A stretch of DNA of 64,000 bases from Candidatus Eiseniibacteriota bacterium (GCA_963717935.1 CAVQXP010000004.1:1344001-1408000); one strand, 5' to 3'. Counted from the stretch's first letter, positions 24,104 through 31,126 are shown. The notes: generated from the sequence alone by a model not told the origin. A program made the numbers and translations.

Positions 24104-24915
24104 CCGGACTGAACCGCGCCGGGCTCTCCGGAGCGCCTGCTAGCTAGCGAGCGCCGCCAACTCGGCCGGGGCTTCCTGGCAGCGACAGTGCGCCTCCTCG
24201 TGCCCCGCACGGGGGGATATCCGACCAGCTCGAGTGGACGCGGGGAATGAACCAAGTGATTCGTTCCAGCGTCGCGAACTCGACGGCCTTCGAGGCCGCG
24301 CCGCGGTCCCCGACGCTGGATCACTGCGGTCTTGAACAGGCCGATTGCGGGTCTGGCCAGCGCGCTGTCGCGCGAGTCGCCGGGAGGGCCGGCCGGGGGC
24401 TCGTTCCCGACGTCAGCCAACCGCCCGGCGCAGCGGATCGACAGGCACTGCCCCCGCGTTCGCGATGATGCACCAACCCGGTTCGCAGTGCGCCTGATCT
24501 CGCCCGCCTCCATGTTCGCGTTGTCCGGTTGAAGAGACTGAGTGTCTCGCCGCCTCCAGCCGGTGGCCCTGAGCGCATGAACGGGGCGCGCTCTGGGCGC
24601 AGGCGCGGACGCGCGCCCATTGGACGGCCTGCCGAGGGTGCGCTAGACTTTGTCATAGACTGGCGCGATTCCAACCCGGGTCGTGCCCCGCATCGAATGT
24701 GGCGCCGACAGGAGCCCGATCGCATCTCATTGTCCCAGGCGATGCACCAGATTCCCGCCCGACATCCGACCGCGCACCGGGGCTGTGGACCGACGGCCCC
24801 GGATGCTAGACTTGATGCTCCGAGGCATGGGCCTCATCCCTCGGCGGGCGGTCCGTCTAGTGCCGTGCCGGCAGCGTCCGGGTAGCGTGGACAGATGGAA
24901 ACGGGGGATTTGTTG

Positions 24916-26766
24916 ATGAAACGACCGACGTACATCCTCGGGATCTCGGCCTTCTACCATGACAGTGCGGCCGCCCTCATTCGCGACGGCGAGATTGTCG
25001 CCGCGGCCCAGGAGGAGCGCTTCTCCCGCAAGAAGCACGACCCCCGTTTCCCCGCCCACGCGGTAAAGTACTGTCTTGCGTTTGCCGGCCTCGAACTTGG
25101 GGACGTGGACTACGTCGTTTTCTACGACAAGCCGATGCTGAAGTTCGAGCGCCTGCTCGAGACCTACTACGCCTTCGCTCCGCGTGGCGTGGCCTCCTTC
25201 GTCACCGCCATGCCGGTCTGGCTGAAGGAGAAGCTCGCGCTCAAGCGGCTGCTCCGCGACGAGCTCGAGAACCTCGGCCGGGGCCCGGTCCGCGGCAAAC
25301 TGCTCTTCCCAGAGCACCACCTGTCGCACGCCGCGAGTGCCTTCTACCCGTCGCCCTACGACGAGGCTGCGGTCCTCACGGTGGACGGCGTGGGCGAGTA
25401 CGCCACGACCACGGGCGGACACGGCCGGGGAAGGGACCTGCGAATCACCCGACAGATCGACTTCCCGCACTCACTCGGCCTGCTCTACTCAGCCTTCACC
25501 TACCATACCGGCTTCAAGGTGAACTCCGGCGAATACAAGGTCATGGGCCTGGCGCCCTATGGCGAGCCTCGCTATGTGAAGACACTCTATGAGCATATCA
25601 TCGACGTGCGACCGGACGGCTCGTACCGGCTCGATATGAAGTACTTCGAGTACGCCACCGGCCTGAAGATGACCAGCGGCGCATTCGACGAGTTGTTCGG
25701 GCACAAGCCCCGTGATCCCGAGAGCACGCTCACGCAGCACGAGATGGACATGGCCGCCTCCCTGCAGGTCGTCACCGAGGAGGTCATGCTCAAGCTCGCC
25801 TGCCACGCGCACGAGCAGACCCGCTCAAAGAACCTGGTGCTGGCCGGTGGGGTCGCGCTCAACTGTGTGGCCAACGGTCGGATCCTGCGGGAGGGGCCTT
25901 TCGAGAATGTCTGGATTCAGCCCGCCGCGGGCGATGCCGGCGGCGCGGTCGGCGCGGCGCTCGCGGTGTGGCACATGTATCTTGGCAATGGGCGCCAGAG
26001 CGACGGGCGGACCGACCGCATGAAGGGCGCCTACCTTGGCCCGGAGTTCAGCGACGACGAGGTCGAGCGCCGACTTGCGCGCCTGGGCGCGGTCGCCACG
26101 CGCATCCCGGACGACGACGTGCTCTACCGCGAGGCCGCCCGGCTGATCGACGAGGGCAATGTCATCGGCTGGCACCAGGGCCGCATGGAGTTCGGCCCCC
26201 GCGCGCTCGGCGCGCGCTCGATCGTGGGTGACGCGCGAAACAAGGAAATGCAGAAGAAGATGAATCTGAAGATCAAGTACCGCGAGTCGTTCCGGCCCTT
26301 TGCGCCCTCGGTCATGCTCGAGATGGTCAACGAGTACTTCGACCTCGACCGCGAGTCCCCGTACATGCTGCTGGTCGACTACGTCAAGAAGGGGCGCCAG
26401 AATCCGATGACCGAGGAGCAGGAGCGGCTCTTTGGCATCGACAAGCTGAACATCATCCGGTCTGACATCCCAGCCATCACGCACATCGACTATTCCGCGC
26501 GTATCCAGACCGTGGACCGCGCCACCGCCCCGCGGTACTGGAACCTGATCAACGCCTTCAAGGAGCGCTCGGGCTACGGCATCGTCGTCAACACCTCGTT
26601 CAACGTTCGCGGCGAGCCGATCGTGTGCACGCCCGAGGATTCGTACCTATGCTTCATGCGCACCGAGATGGACTACCTCTTCTGCGGGAACTGGATGATG
26701 TCGAAGACCGAGCAGCCAAAGCTGCGCGACGACGTCGACTGGCGCCGGCAGTACGAACTCGACTAG
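24916..26766 (+). CDS. Carbamoyltransferase, NodU/CmcH/TobZ family (SxtI-like)
   Basis: ILGISAFYHDSAA, AAQEERF, EHHLSHAASAF, DGVGE, GEYKVMGLAPYG, AGGVALNC, EFGPRALG, KYRESFRPFAP, NTSFN. Confidence 0.95.
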   Translation: MKRPTYILGISAFYHDSAAALIRDGEIVAAAQEERFSRKKHDPRFPAHAVKYCLAFAGLELGDVDYVVFYDKPMLKFERLLETYYAFAPRGVASFVTAMPVWLKEKLALKRLLRDELENLGRGPVRGKLLFPEHHLSHAASAFYPSPYDEAAVLTVDGVGEYATTTGGHGRGRDLRITRQIDFPHSLGLLYSAFTYHTGFKVNSGEYKVMGLAPYGEPRYVKTLYEHIIDVRPDGSYRLDMKYFEYATGLKMTSGAFDELFGHKPRDPESTLTQHEMDMAASLQVVTEEVMLKLACHAHEQTRSKNLVLAGGVALNCVANGRILREGPFENVWIQPAAGDAGGAVGAALAVWHMYLGNGRQSDGRTDRMKGAYLGPEFSDDEVERRLARLGAVATRIPDDDVLYREAARLIDEGNVIGWHQGRMEFGPRALGARSIVGDARNKEMQKKMNLKIKYRESFRPFAPSVMLEMVNEYFDLDRESPYMLLVDYVKKGRQNPMTEEQERLFGIDKLNIIRSDIPAITHIDYSARIQTVDRATAPRYWNLINAFKERSGYGIVVNTSFNVRGEPIVCTPEDSYLCFMRTEMDYLFCGNWMMSKTEQPKLRDDVDWRRQYELD

Positions 26767-26790
26767 CCCGACCGGAGGAGGGAGACCACG

Positions 26791-27186
26791 ATGTCGAAAG
26801 TCTCTGACTACCAGACGCGCCTCGGCTCCATGCAACTGGCGGGGGCTTTTGCGCTGCTCTTCCTAGTCCTGCATCTGCTGCACCAACGTTCCGACCCGCT
26901 GTTCCTCCACATCGCGGTCGGCTGCCTGGTGCTCGGGGTGTTCTTCTATCGCCTGCTGACGCCGGTCTTCTGGCTCTGGTCCCGCTTCGGCACGCTCCTC
27001 AACAAGGTGATCGGGCCGCTCGTCTTTGGCCTGCTCTTCTACGGCTTCCTGACGCCGATTGCGCTGCTGCGCCGGCTGGCAGGCGGCAAGGGTCTGCCGA
27101 CCGGCTTCGCGCCGCCGGGGGAGAGCGCCTGGATCAAGCGCGGGGACGAGCCGTTCAAGCCCGCCGAGTTCGAGAGGCAGTTCTAG
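26791..27186 (+). CDS. SxtJ-family small membrane protein
   Basis: TM helices, LTPVFWLWSRFGTLL, LFYGFLTPIALLRR, SAWIKR...ERQF; directly after the carbamoyltransferase; GGAGG RBS. Confidence 0.8.
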   Translation: MSKVSDYQTRLGSMQLAGAFALLFLVLHLLHQRSDPLFLHIAVGCLVLGVFFYRLLTPVFWLWSRFGTLLNKVIGPLVFGLLFYGFLTPIALLRRLAGGKGLPTGFAPPGESAWIKRGDEPFKPAEFERQF

Positions 27187-27202
27187 CCCGCCGGGTCGCG
27201 CG

Positions 27203-28579
27203 ATGACCGATCCCCGGCACGCACGGAACGTCAGGGTCCTCTTCGGGCTCGTCACCCTGGCGGGTTTCGTCACGGTGATCATCGGGCTGCTGTTCACCGA
27301 GCGGCTGCTCACTCCGTTTGCAGACCACCCGCACATCAATCCGATCAATGTGCGCTACATCCGCCTTGTGCAGATCCGCTATCTCGTCCTTGGAGCGTCG
27401 CTATCCGCGCTCGGGCTGCTGCTCCCACGCATCATCGGGTTCCGGGACTGGCTGGCGGGGCAGCCCCGCGCGATCAACGTCATCCTGCTGCTGTCCTTCG
27501 TCGCGTGGCCGTGCGCGATTCTTGAGCTGGCGCTCTGGGCGCACCCGCAGTTCTCGACCGCCGAGACCCTCAAGCGCTCGATCAGCTACGTTCCCTCCGC
27601 GTTCAGCGTCCACCGCATGGTAGAGCGCGAGCAGACCGTGCTTGCCCCCGACCTGCTGAACCGCAGGCCCATCTACTCGATTCGAAATGGCTACCGAAGC
27701 CGGCCCTTCGACGTGCGCAAGCCGGCGGGGGAGATCCGCATCTTCATCATCGGCGGGTCCCACGTCCTGGACGCCTGGTCCTACGGGGAGCAGGACTGGC
27801 CCACCGCGACCGAGACCCGTCTGCACGAGCTCGGCTTCCGCAACGTGCGCGTCATCAATGCCGGCACGGCGGGCCACCGCACCTTCGACGCGCTGGGGCG
27901 ACTGGTCTCGGAGATCCACCTCTACGCCCCCGACTACGTGGTGCTCTGCTGCACGTACAACGACCTCAAGTTCTTTCCCTGGGTGAGCCCGGAAAGAACC
28001 CTGCTCAAGGGCATCGAGCCGCTGCCGGGCCCGACGCACCGCCCGATCGGGTTCCTGCGCTGGCTGCTCGAACACAGCCAGCTCTATGTGCGCGCGAGCA
28101 ACGCCGTTGCACAGCTCACCGGGCGTGTCGCGAAGCAAGCGGGCGGCGACCTCGACGTCGCCCCAACCGAGGGCGGCTACCAGGAGATCAGCCCCTACGC
28201 GCTGCGGCAGTATCAGCTGCAGCTGCGGGTCTTCGCGGACATTTGCACGAACGCCGGCATCCAGCCGGTATTCTTCACCGAATCGCGGCTGATCACCCAG
28301 GCCAACTACGCCGAGATTGAGAAGAAGGGTGGCTACCGGACCACGATCAGGCTCGCCCCGGGAACCCTGGCCGACACGTATCGGCAGTGTGACTCGCTGC
28401 TGCGTCTGGTGGCCGAGGAGAAACACGCCTACTTCTTCGATCTGGCGAAGACCGTAAGCGGCATCGAAGCCGACTTCCGTGACCCGATTCACCTTGAACC
28501 ACAGGGTAGCGCTGTCGTCGCGGCGAGCGCGGCCGACTACCTTTCCACCATCCTCAAGAAACGAAAGAGCGAGAGGTGA
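27203..28579 (+). CDS. Membrane-anchored SGNH/GDSL hydrolase-family protein (SxtL-like)
   Basis: Three N-terminal TM segments; block I IIGGSH, block II INAGTAG, block III TYND, block V DPIHL. Confidence 0.82.
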   Translation: MTDPRHARNVRVLFGLVTLAGFVTVIIGLLFTERLLTPFADHPHINPINVRYIRLVQIRYLVLGASLSALGLLLPRIIGFRDWLAGQPRAINVILLLSFVAWPCAILELALWAHPQFSTAETLKRSISYVPSAFSVHRMVEREQTVLAPDLLNRRPIYSIRNGYRSRPFDVRKPAGEIRIFIIGGSHVLDAWSYGEQDWPTATETRLHELGFRNVRVINAGTAGHRTFDALGRLVSEIHLYAPDYVVLCCTYNDLKFFPWVSPERTLLKGIEPLPGPTHRPIGFLRWLLEHSQLYVRASNAVAQLTGRVAKQAGGDLDVAPTEGGYQEISPYALRQYQLQLRVFADICTNAGIQPVFFTESRLITQANYAEIEKKGGYRTTIRLAPGTLADTYRQCDSLLRLVAEEKHAYFFDLAKTVSGIEADFRDPIHLEPQGSAVVAASAADYLSTILKKRKSER

Positions 28580-28582
28580 AGC

Positions 28583-28732
28583 ATGGACTTCCTGACTGAC
28601 CTGTGGGTGTTCCTCAAGGAACGCAAGAAGTGGTGGCTGCTCCCCGTCATCGTCGTGGTGCTCGTGTTCGGCATCGTCCTCGTGTTCGGGGGCGCCTCTG
28701 CACTCTCGCCGTTCATCTACGCCCTGTTCTAG
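28583..28732 (+). CDS. 49-aa SxtK/DUF5989-family membrane peptide (absent from the ORF track)
   Basis: Translated by hand: MDFLTDLWVFLKERKKWWLLPVIVVVLVFGIVLVFGGASALSPFIYALF*; GAGGTG RBS; RKKWWLLP and PFIYxLF hallmark motifs. Confidence 0.88.
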   Translation: MDFLTDLWVFLKERKKWWLLPVIVVVLVFGIVLVFGGASALSPFIYALF

Positions 28733-29027
28733 CAGCACGGAGCGTAGGGCGGGGGGGGGACGTCGGCGCGCGATCGAAATCACACTCACCATGGGTCTGA
28801 CTGCCCCCGCTGCTGCGCCCCCCACGCCGGGCGTCCGGGGCGCGGCGCGCTTGCGTGCCAGTGGGTCCGCAGGAAGGCCGGCATGTGGCCGGGGTCCGCG
28901 CGTTCCGGCAAGTTGCCGCCGTCAGGTCGCCTCTTTCACCCGTACCAAAGCCGGTGTCATCGGTCATGCAAAAGTCCCCACTTGCGGTCAGTGAAAGTTC
29001 CCCACCCGCACCGAGAGGAGGAGCGGG

Positions 29028-30353: not shown

Positions 30354-31126
30354 ACCCGCTCCAACTCGAGCGCCTGAGCGAGCAGTTGCAGCGACTGCGG
30401 CTGTTCAAGAGCCGCGAACGGCTCGAGGCCCTGCTCCAGGAGGCCAGCGGTGAGGAACTGAGCTACGCCGACTTCCTCGACCGGCTGCTCACCGAGGAGG
30501 TCACCTCCAAGACCGCCAAGAACGTCACCATGCGCACCAGCCTGGCCCGCTTCCCGTTCGTCAAGAGCCTCGAGAGCTTCGACTTCGGCTACCAGCCCTC
30601 GATCGACAAGAAGCAGCTCCAGACCCTGGCCAACTGCCACTTCATCGAGCACGGCGAGAACGTGCTCCTGCTCGGGCCCCCGGGCGTCGGCAAGACTCAC
30701 CTGGCCGTCGGACTGGGCTTGAAGGCCATCGAGTGCGGCTACCGAGTGCTGTTCACCACCGCCGCCGGCATGATCGCCGCCCTCGGCAAGGCCCTGGCCG
30801 AGGGCCGGCTCGACGAGAAGCTCAAGCTCTACACCGTGCCACGGCTCTTGATCATCGACGAGATCGGCTACCTGCCCATCGACCAGACCGGCGCCAACCT
30901 GTTCTTCCAACTCATCAGCCGGCGCTACGAGAAGGGGCCGATGATCCTCACCAGCAACCAGAGCTTCGGCAGCTGGGGCGACGTCTTCGGGGACCGGGTC
31001 ATCGCCGCCGCCATCCTCGACCGGGTCCTCCACCACGCCGTCACCGTCAACATCCGCGGCAACAGCTACCGGCTCAAGGACCGCCTCAAGGCCGGGCTGC
31101 TGCAGCCGGCCGAGACCGTCAGCTAA
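30350..31126 (+). CDS. istB: IS21 helper AAA+ ATPase IstB
   Basis: Walker A GPPGVGKT, Walker B LIIDEIGY, TSN, AILDRVLHH, GNSYR; ATGA overlap with istA. Confidence 0.95.
   Translation: MNPLQLERLSEQLQRLRLFKSRERLEALLQEASGEELSYADFLDRLLTEEVTSKTAKNVTMRTSLARFPFVKSLESFDFGYQPSIDKKQLQTLANCHFIEHGENVLLLGPPGVGKTHLAVGLGLKAIECGYRVLFTTAAGMIAALGKALAEGRLDEKLKLYTVPRLLIIDEIGYLPIDQTGANLFFQLISRRYEKGPMILTSNQSFGSWGDVFGDRVIAAAILDRVLHHAVTVNIRGNSYRLKDRLKAGLLQPAETVS

Follow-up and report, generated by a model that had tools for sequence, protein, structure and literature searches.

The window analysed here is a stretch of 64,000 nucleotides from Candidatus Eiseniibacteriota bacterium (GCA_963717935.1 CAVQXP010000004.1:1344001-1408000), and all positions are counted from its first letter. 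At 24916-28732 it carries a cassette of four genes on the + strand, encoding in order a carbamoyltransferase (CT), a small SxtJ-like membrane protein, an SGNH enzyme and a DUF5989/SxtK-type peptide, hereafter K. An initial annotation had described this cassette as part of a surface-polysaccharide locus in a window without an MBOAT acyltransferase, and had proposed that it carbamoylates the exported glycan by way of a tyrosine (Tyr) on K. The description was borne out: all four genes are present as listed below, the neighbouring genes are those of polysaccharide export, Wzz, a flippase, a priming transferase and many glycosyltransferases, and a scan of 32 flanking open reading frames (ORFs) of the window gave no MBOAT.

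The cassette and its genes

24916..26766, + strand: O-carbamoyltransferase (CT) of the NodU/CmcH/TobZ family, 616 aa (Pfam PF02543 and PF16861)
26791..27186, + strand: small membrane protein of the SxtJ-like kind, 131 aa; three hydrophobic helices precede a basic C-terminal tail (PF19588, below cut-off)
27203..28579, + strand: SGNH enzyme of 458 aa, membrane-anchored; three N-terminal helices are followed by the SGNH domain at about residues 178-457 (Lipase_GDSL_2, below cut-off)
28583..28732, + strand: DUF5989/SxtK-type peptide K, 49 aa (PF19451)
28712..28729, + strand: codons of the hexapeptide FIYALF (FxYxxF motif), with the codon of the proposed carrier, Tyr46, at 28718-28720

The genes are closely spaced, with intergenic gaps of 24, 16 and 3 nt; GAGAGG precedes the start of K, and CT might instead begin at an in-frame ATG at 24895. 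In the 3.0-Mb genome as a whole there is a single MBOAT match, some 1.09 Mb from the cassette.

The K family and its C-terminal tyrosine

K matched DUF5989 (PF19451) over its entire length (residues 1-49 of 49) with 80.7 bits against a cut-off of 27. It consists of an amphipathic N-terminal helix, the segment KERKKWW, a single transmembrane (TM) helix and an uncharged tail (ASALSPFIYALF), which ends ...SPFIYALF before a TAG stop. A profile search returned 6107 cluster representatives (50% identity) at E <= 0.001 among 1.84 billion. The K family is very large and uncharacterised, and is spread over many bacterial phyla and the DPANN archaea.

The tyrosine at position -4, the conservation of which had been set as a check on the proposal, was present in all 120 K ORFs read from genomes, 80 from genome loci and 40 from cyanobacteria. 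At the 80 loci, F.Y..F formed the C-terminus of every K ORF, including those of Woesearchaeota and Nanoarchaeota. These loci were retrieved by the pattern [EAQ][RT]KK[WF]WL[LFV]P, and thus the conservation of the KKWWLLP segment among them is circular, while that of the C-terminal tail, which lies outside the pattern, is not. The 40 cyanobacterial ORFs (39 loci) were collected with the Pfam model down to E of about 1e-9 and include divergent members; their tails read PFIYTLF in 32, PFIYTII in six, PFIYSIF in one and VFVYPFF in one, with a variable final residue. The PFIYTII tail marks a divergent subgroup from small cyanobacterial genomes (loci L113-L118). A search with the most divergent K, which ends in VFVYPFF, gave no candidates, and therefore the far edge of the family is sampled by the cyanobacterial set only. 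In 189 database K proteins, which are the best-scoring members (40 plus 149 new) and biased towards the consensus, F[IV]Y[TAS][LIV][FG] was terminal in 170 and preceded an unconserved extension in 18, and the remaining one was apparently frameshifted.

The motif is also specific. Among 6024 six-frame ORFs of at least 40 aa at the 80 K loci, only 85 ended in F.Y..F, namely all 80 K ORFs, all four MBOATs and a single other ORF of 45 aa. The occurrence of this motif at the end of K is far beyond chance. In addition, the last 13 residues of K were uncharged in 76 of the 80.

FXYXXF is the C-terminal "acyl shuttle" motif of DltX and of MBOATs, in which the acylated tyrosine donates to an SGNH enzyme; the peptide of PatA is FIYANF, and the shuttles known so far carry acetyl or D-alanyl (PMC12148441). 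The MBOAT encoded elsewhere in the genome of the window (468 aa; L001, G000:C4:254840-258553) itself ends ...GLSFIYFKY, and its last 46 residues resemble K in layout when compared by eye: an amphipathic helix, a basic cluster, a tryptophan, a TM helix, small residues and FIY. A 322-aa ORF without a Pfam match follows this MBOAT gene and presumably encodes its outer-face partner.

The SGNH enzyme

The SGNH protein scored 31.1 bits against Lipase_GDSL_2, just below the cut-off of 32.9. Its place in the SGNH superfamily is indicated by blocks I, II, III and V with their Ser, Gly, Asn and His, and by the SGNH fold found with Foldseek. In an alignment of 28 cassette SGNH proteins, Ser186 (GGS) and His430 (DPIH) were invariant, and Gly221 and N219 of block II and D254 of block III (Asn/Asp253-254 in the window protein) were kept in at least 90%. 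The best solved relatives by fold were carbohydrate acetyl-esterases; the Foldseek search with the model returned generic SGNH esterases only, with no specific likeness to PatB or DltD.

Within the same genome, the nearest paralogue is the SGNH domain of an AT3-SGNH fusion of the OatA/OafA type (E 4e-29; 795 aa; L126:4892-7279, corresponding to G000:C4:668891-671278). Proteins of this class take acetyl from a tyrosine, as stated in PMC12148441. Counting the cassette beside the MBOAT and the AT3-SGNH protein, the genome would hold all three kinds of envelope-acylation module.

By sequence, the closest solved full-length relative is CgnD (8a2n, E 8e-17), from a cluster that also encodes a carbamoyltransferase, CgnI; CgnD is described as releasing the C-terminal crocagin core, with very slow proteolysis and no labelling by phenylmethylsulfonyl fluoride (PMC10070186). 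Because of that slow proteolysis and missing labelling, the native reaction of CgnD may deserve a second look. This relationship raises an alternative in which K, as in the crocagin pathway, is the precursor of a ribosomally made, post-translationally modified peptide (RiPP), whose C-terminal residues are cut off by the SGNH enzyme and carbamoylated. We regard this as highly improbable. What would be the core hardly changes between archaea and cyanobacteria, while RiPP cores usually vary; K, with its conserved TM helix, is a membrane protein; the family occurs in polysaccharide loci; and no families like CgnB, CgnC or CgnE were found among the 32 flanking ORFs of the window.

The carbamoyltransferase and the SxtJ-like protein

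CT is a full member of its family with both NodU/CmcH/TobZ domains, a Kae1-like N-domain (Carbam_trans_N, 338 bits) and a YrdC-like C-domain (Carbam_trans_C, 231 bits), and its best solved relatives are NovN (9s2t, E 9e-97), GdmN and TobZ. Neither a signal peptide nor a TM segment was seen by eye, and we therefore take CT to be cytoplasmic. In a quick tree, the K-linked CTs formed one clade of 60 of the 70 rows, with support of 99 in the Shimodaira-Hasegawa-like approximate likelihood ratio test, into which the CT of the window falls, and an additional archaeal clade of four rows. Five of the seven CT rows located more than 1.7 kb from K lay outside the K-linked clade, as did L050_7935, a second CT near K. 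Very divergent second copies of CT outside this clade were seen at several K loci (L003, L004, L030, L050, L056 and L067).

The SxtJ-like protein matched PF19588 with 22.9 bits (E 1.4e-4), just below the curated cut-off of 24.4. When the window protein served as seed for a profile, 71 small ORFs beside K genes were matched, and database read-through proteins carry PF19588 together with PF19451. One such SxtJ-K protein from a relative was modelled with AlphaFold2, using an alignment of 25 of the 37 such proteins found, and the SxtJ helices were predicted confidently, with a predicted local distance difference test score (pLDDT) above 90. A structure search with this model gave generic helical matches only, with Z < 6.

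Apparent fusions of K in the database (SxtJ-K, K-SxtJ, K-CT and K-SGNH; P0190-P0302) were considered as natural fusions and set aside. At the junctions that were read, they mostly have glutamine or tryptophan in place of the stop (lysine in two K-CT proteins), and several are apparently frameshifted; they are likely to be read-through or gene-calling artefacts, arising from a wrong genetic code in the gene calls.

Linkage of K with CT, SxtJ and SGNH genes

Linkage was counted at the 49 of the 80 K loci that have at least 3.5 kb on both sides. CT was found within 3 kb of K in 48 of these, and SxtJ accompanied K in 46 (37 at the first count, six farther along the operon and three within over-long ORFs); SGNH genes lay within 5 kb of K in 34. 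As counted over all 80 loci with hidden Markov models (HMMs) built from three seeds each, which may miss distant members, an MBOAT occurred within 7 kb of K at only four, each with its own fused F[IL]YFQF tail, and AT3 occurred near K at five. A Pfam scan of neighbouring ORFs, which took in 131 of the 239 that had been selected and covered 27 of the 49 loci, found MBOAT at two loci, in line with the HMM count. The survey of co-occurrence that the initial annotation called for thus came out in its favour: K is accompanied by SxtJ and often by SGNH, as well as by CT, with MBOAT seldom nearby.

These counts bear on a second alternative, namely that K is a tyrosine shuttle feeding SGNH with another acyl group, such as acetyl, from some other donor, and that CT acts independently on the same glycan. 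The known FxYxxF shuttles do carry acetyl or D-alanyl (PMC12148441), the best solved relatives of the SGNH enzyme by fold are carbohydrate acetyl-esterases, and at some loci an AT3 acyltransferase adjoins K (L028, 132 nt; L039, 43 nt). But K almost always occurs with the K-linked CT clade (48/49), MBOAT and AT3 are rare near it (4/80 and 5/80), and no other conserved loading enzyme was found among the 131 of 239 selected neighbour ORFs scanned, and on balance we consider such a shuttle for another group very unlikely.

The cyanobacteria provided a wider comparison. K was present in 78 of 401 sampled genomes, 74 of them above the cut-off. Cassette-type SGNH proteins (E <= 1e-12) were found in 63 of these 74 K-positive genomes versus 79 of 327 K-negative ones, and at least two copies in 52/74 versus 12/327, in counts that ignore the kinship of the genomes and score at most five candidates per genome. 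In one cyanobacterial array (L128, G353:C31:51500-63574), CT, SxtJ and K are followed by five SGNH paralogues on the same strand, with two more nearby; in another (L127, G275:C1:2550500-2570400), SxtJ and K are followed by seven SGNH genes, and the 4.4 kb past SxtJ showed no CT. Such arrays suggest that one donor feeds many transferases. In the small-genome cyanobacteria (L113-L118), K, SxtJ and CT are present with no SGNH within 6 kb, and 5-16 SGNH ORFs of about 320-345 aa are scattered through the genome.

At four DPANN archaeal loci (L029, L049, L052 and L060) the gene order is SxtJ, CT, SGNH, K, although no SGNH match was obtained at L052. These four loci adjoin B12-radical-SAM genes, and L049 also has genes for phosphoenolpyruvate mutase and a cytidylyltransferase; they are probably loci for phosphonate-decorated surface glycans.

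In the genome of the window and its relatives, the cassette is accessory: among 40 other related genomes, nine had K, and the seven of the same genus gave no K at all. Downstream, within the polysaccharide locus, the K gene is adjoined by an IS21-type element, with its start placed at 28995 or 29028 and its end at 31126, that consists of an IstA-like transposase (rve and Mu-transposase C domains) and an IstB ATPase. The G + C content is lower at 24-48 kb of the window (0.65-0.68) than in the flanks (0.70-0.77).

Predicted topology and a possible carbamoyl relay

A shuttle of the DltX kind places the tail of the peptide and the SGNH domain on the same face of the membrane, and an arrangement on opposite faces had been named in advance as an objection to it. 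For K, the N-terminal flank of the TM helix was more positive than the C-terminal flank in 79 of 80 sequences, which places the N-terminus inside. For the first TM helix of the SGNH proteins, the N-flank was the more positive in 28 of 40, the C-flank in four, and the two were equal in eight; among 43 proteins, 28 had one N-terminal TM helix and five had three. Based on this charge bias and these helix counts, the K tail and the SGNH domain are both predicted on the outer face, as in DltX-DltD, and on this prediction the objection does not apply. No topology was drawn from the apparent K fusions, since they are taken to be artefacts.

On these grounds we put forward, as a tentative reading that may well prove wrong but has a good deal in its favour, that the cassette carbamoylates the exported polysaccharide through a DltX-like covalent carbamoyl-tyrosine relay running from CT to Tyr46, to Ser186 of SGNH and on to the glycan. 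Cytoplasmic CT would first make carbamoyl-AMP from carbamoyl phosphate and ATP, as is established for the enzyme family. It would then dock on a membrane module formed by SxtJ together with K's basic N-terminal part, and would carbamoylate the phenol of Tyr46, a residue of the 12-residue uncharged tail of K; this tail is supposed to dip back, from the outer face, into the SxtJ/K module. The carbamoyl-tyrosine tail might, by analogy with DltX-DltD and PatA-PatB, swing to the outer-face SGNH enzyme and carbamoylate Ser186, and SGNH would hand the carbamoyl group on to a hydroxyl on a sugar of the polymer. At loci with several SGNH paralogues after K, a single donor module would supply several transferases.

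A number of observations weigh against this relay. Because CT depends on ATP and carbamoyl phosphate and lacks an export signal, the tyrosine would have to be loaded across the membrane; with CT in the cytoplasm and the tyrosine predicted outside, no conduit is evident. SxtJ offers little for such a role: in 60 sequences only W63 and P89 were invariant, two arginines were kept in about 79%, and there was no His, Ser or Asp candidate, while an Atlas search for SxtJ relatives found nothing outside its own family. In the model of the SxtJ-K protein, the K tail had a pLDDT of only 52-62, and the overall predicted TM-score (pTM) was 0.47. As for the last step, carbamoyl-serine enzymes are usually long-lived, and onward transfer could be slow. 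The cassette SGNH enzyme keeps the canonical glycine of block II, which is replaced in the proven transferases PatB and OatA according to PMC12148441. SGNH was not found within 5 kb of K at 15 of the 49 loci, and a strong cassette-type SGNH was not found in 11 of the 74 K-positive cyanobacterial genomes, though a looser search of five of these gave 5-16 weaker matches. Finally, no homology of K with the known shuttles was detected: K had no match to DltX (PF12459), with DUF5989 its only Pfam match at E <= 0.1; a PDB search with the K profile returned no DltX chain at E <= 10 and only chance TM matches with E > 1; and an hhalign profile-profile comparison of K with five MBOAT tails gave a probability of 11%. 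Thus, the likeness of K to DltX rests on motif and layout.

Several of these points would sit more easily with the main alternative, in which K and SxtJ are non-covalent membrane subunits that tether or activate CT at the inner face; CT itself would there carbamoylate the lipid-linked repeat unit directly (or, in the sxt clusters, a small molecule). The FIYxxF tail would then be merely a packing or recognition element, and the SGNH protein a separate esterase or editing enzyme, as has been proposed for SxtL. K is indeed tied more closely to CT (48/49) and SxtJ (46/49) than to SGNH (34/49), SxtJ has no catalytic signature, members of the CT family such as NovN, GdmN and TobZ act directly on hydroxyls of soluble substrates, and no transfer across the membrane is necessary. 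We nevertheless consider this alternative unlikely, if still a serious one, as it leaves unexplained the exact C-terminal position of the tail, the invariant tyrosine at -4 in a motif otherwise confined to MBOAT tails, the predicted location of the tail on the face opposite CT, the enrichment of SGNH in K-positive genomes and the SGNH arrays directly after K.

To return to the carbamoyl-tyrosine relay, the interpretation in the initial annotation was supported in part: each of its proposed checks that was carried out favoured it, but the suggestion that SxtJ replaces the MBOAT received no support of its own, as this protein has no catalytic-looking residue.

The saxitoxin genes and wider implications

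In PMC2679770, sxtI, sxtJ, sxtK and sxtL are listed in that order with lengths of 1839, 405, 165 and 1281 bp. In reviews, SxtJ and SxtK are entered as unknown or as partners of SxtI, and SxtL is presumed to be a decarbamoylase. In cyanobacterial cassettes unrelated to toxins, CT is followed by SxtJ (about 408 nt), K (165 nt) and an SGNH gene (about 1266 nt), which match the sizes and order of sxtI-J-K-L.

Going beyond the window, it is quite possible, though we offer it with slightly more hesitation than the relay at this locus, that the DUF5989/SxtK peptides are the free-standing tyrosine carriers of a third envelope-acylation relay, after MBOAT-SGNH and AT3-SGNH, distributed from DPANN archaea to cyanobacteria. 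An ATP-dependent CT docked on SxtJ would load the carbamoyl group, one or several outer-face SGNH enzymes would unload it onto glycans, and sxtI-J-K-L would be a recruited copy in which SxtL is the final carbamoyltransferase and not a decarbamoylase.

Full-text searches, with subscription journals outside their coverage, found no publication on DUF5989, none in which carbamoyl is brought up in a relevant way beside an "acyl shuttle" or DltX, and no mechanism for SxtJ/SxtK or for the combination of a carbamoyltransferase, a polysaccharide and SGNH; within that coverage, a carbamoyl-tyrosine relay is undescribed, as had been supposed at the outset. If the relay exists, acyl-tyrosine shuttling, seen until now with MBOAT and AT3 membrane acyltransferases, extends to the donor chemistry of ATP and carbamoyl phosphate and to the carbamoyl group, and a very large uncharacterised family gains a function. 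The relay would also account for carbamoylation of surface glycans once they have been exported, would give concrete and testable roles to SxtJ and SxtK, both "unknown" ever since the first description of the sxt clusters, and would assign a different role to SxtL.

Comparison with known systems

The closest parallel is with DltX-DltB-DltD and with PatA-PatB/AlgI, which have in common with K a C-terminal FxYxxF motif whose invariant tyrosine lies on a short tail that follows a TM helix on the outer face (PMC12148441). DltX is likewise a free-standing microprotein of about 50 aa, and both DltX-DltD and PatA-PatB, like the cassette, involve a membrane-anchored SGNH partner on the outer face. Measured against the DltX-type shuttle class, K is a single-pass microprotein with the FxYxxF end and the invariant tyrosine, and it has a partner SGNH predicted on the outer face, adjacent to it in the window and nearby at 34 of 49 loci. 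It departs from the class in the MBOAT partner, of which none was found in the window scan and which occurs at 4/80 loci, each time with a tail of its own. Unlike the DltX and PatA systems, the cassette has no MBOAT, carrier protein or acyl-CoA donor; the donor linked to it is an ATP-dependent soluble carbamoyltransferase with the three-helix SxtJ, and the group transferred would be carbamoyl. It differs further in that sequence comparison detected no homology of K with DltX or with the tails of MBOATs and in that its relay intermediate is only proposed.

The AT3-SGNH proteins (OatA/OafA) resemble the proposed relay in having an outer-face SGNH domain acylated from a tyrosine of a membrane partner, but there the tyrosine lies in the AT3 domain and the parts are fused, whereas in the cassette it is carried by a separate 49-aa peptide and no AT3 is present. 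In the crocagin pathway, an SGNH protein and a carbamoyltransferase also co-occur with a peptide, one with a C-terminal aromatic core; CgnD is described there as a slow leader protease acting on a soluble precursor, whereas the cassette has no CgnB, CgnC or CgnE partners and K is a conserved membrane protein.

The characterised carbamoyltransferases of the TobZ, NovN, GdmN and NodU type share both domains with the cassette CT. They act alone on soluble substrates and, to our knowledge, have no SxtJ or K partners, whereas the K-linked CTs form a clade of their own.

The sxtI-J-K-L genes comprise the same four kinds of gene as the cassette, with the equivalence of SxtK and DUF5989 drawn from gene size, gene order and the initial annotation. 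The two differ in setting and order: the cassette runs CT, SxtJ, SGNH, K, no toxin-pathway genes were found in the window, where only polysaccharide genes and the IS21-type element surround it, and its acceptor, unlike that of the sxt clusters, is presumably a glycan.

In its overall logic, the cassette also recalls the three-part periplasmic glycan modification of the Gtr/Arn systems, in which a cytoplasmic activating enzyme, one or more small membrane proteins and an outer-face transferase work together. Those systems rely on undecaprenyl-phosphate carriers and flippases, whereas the carrier in the cassette would be the tyrosine of a peptide.

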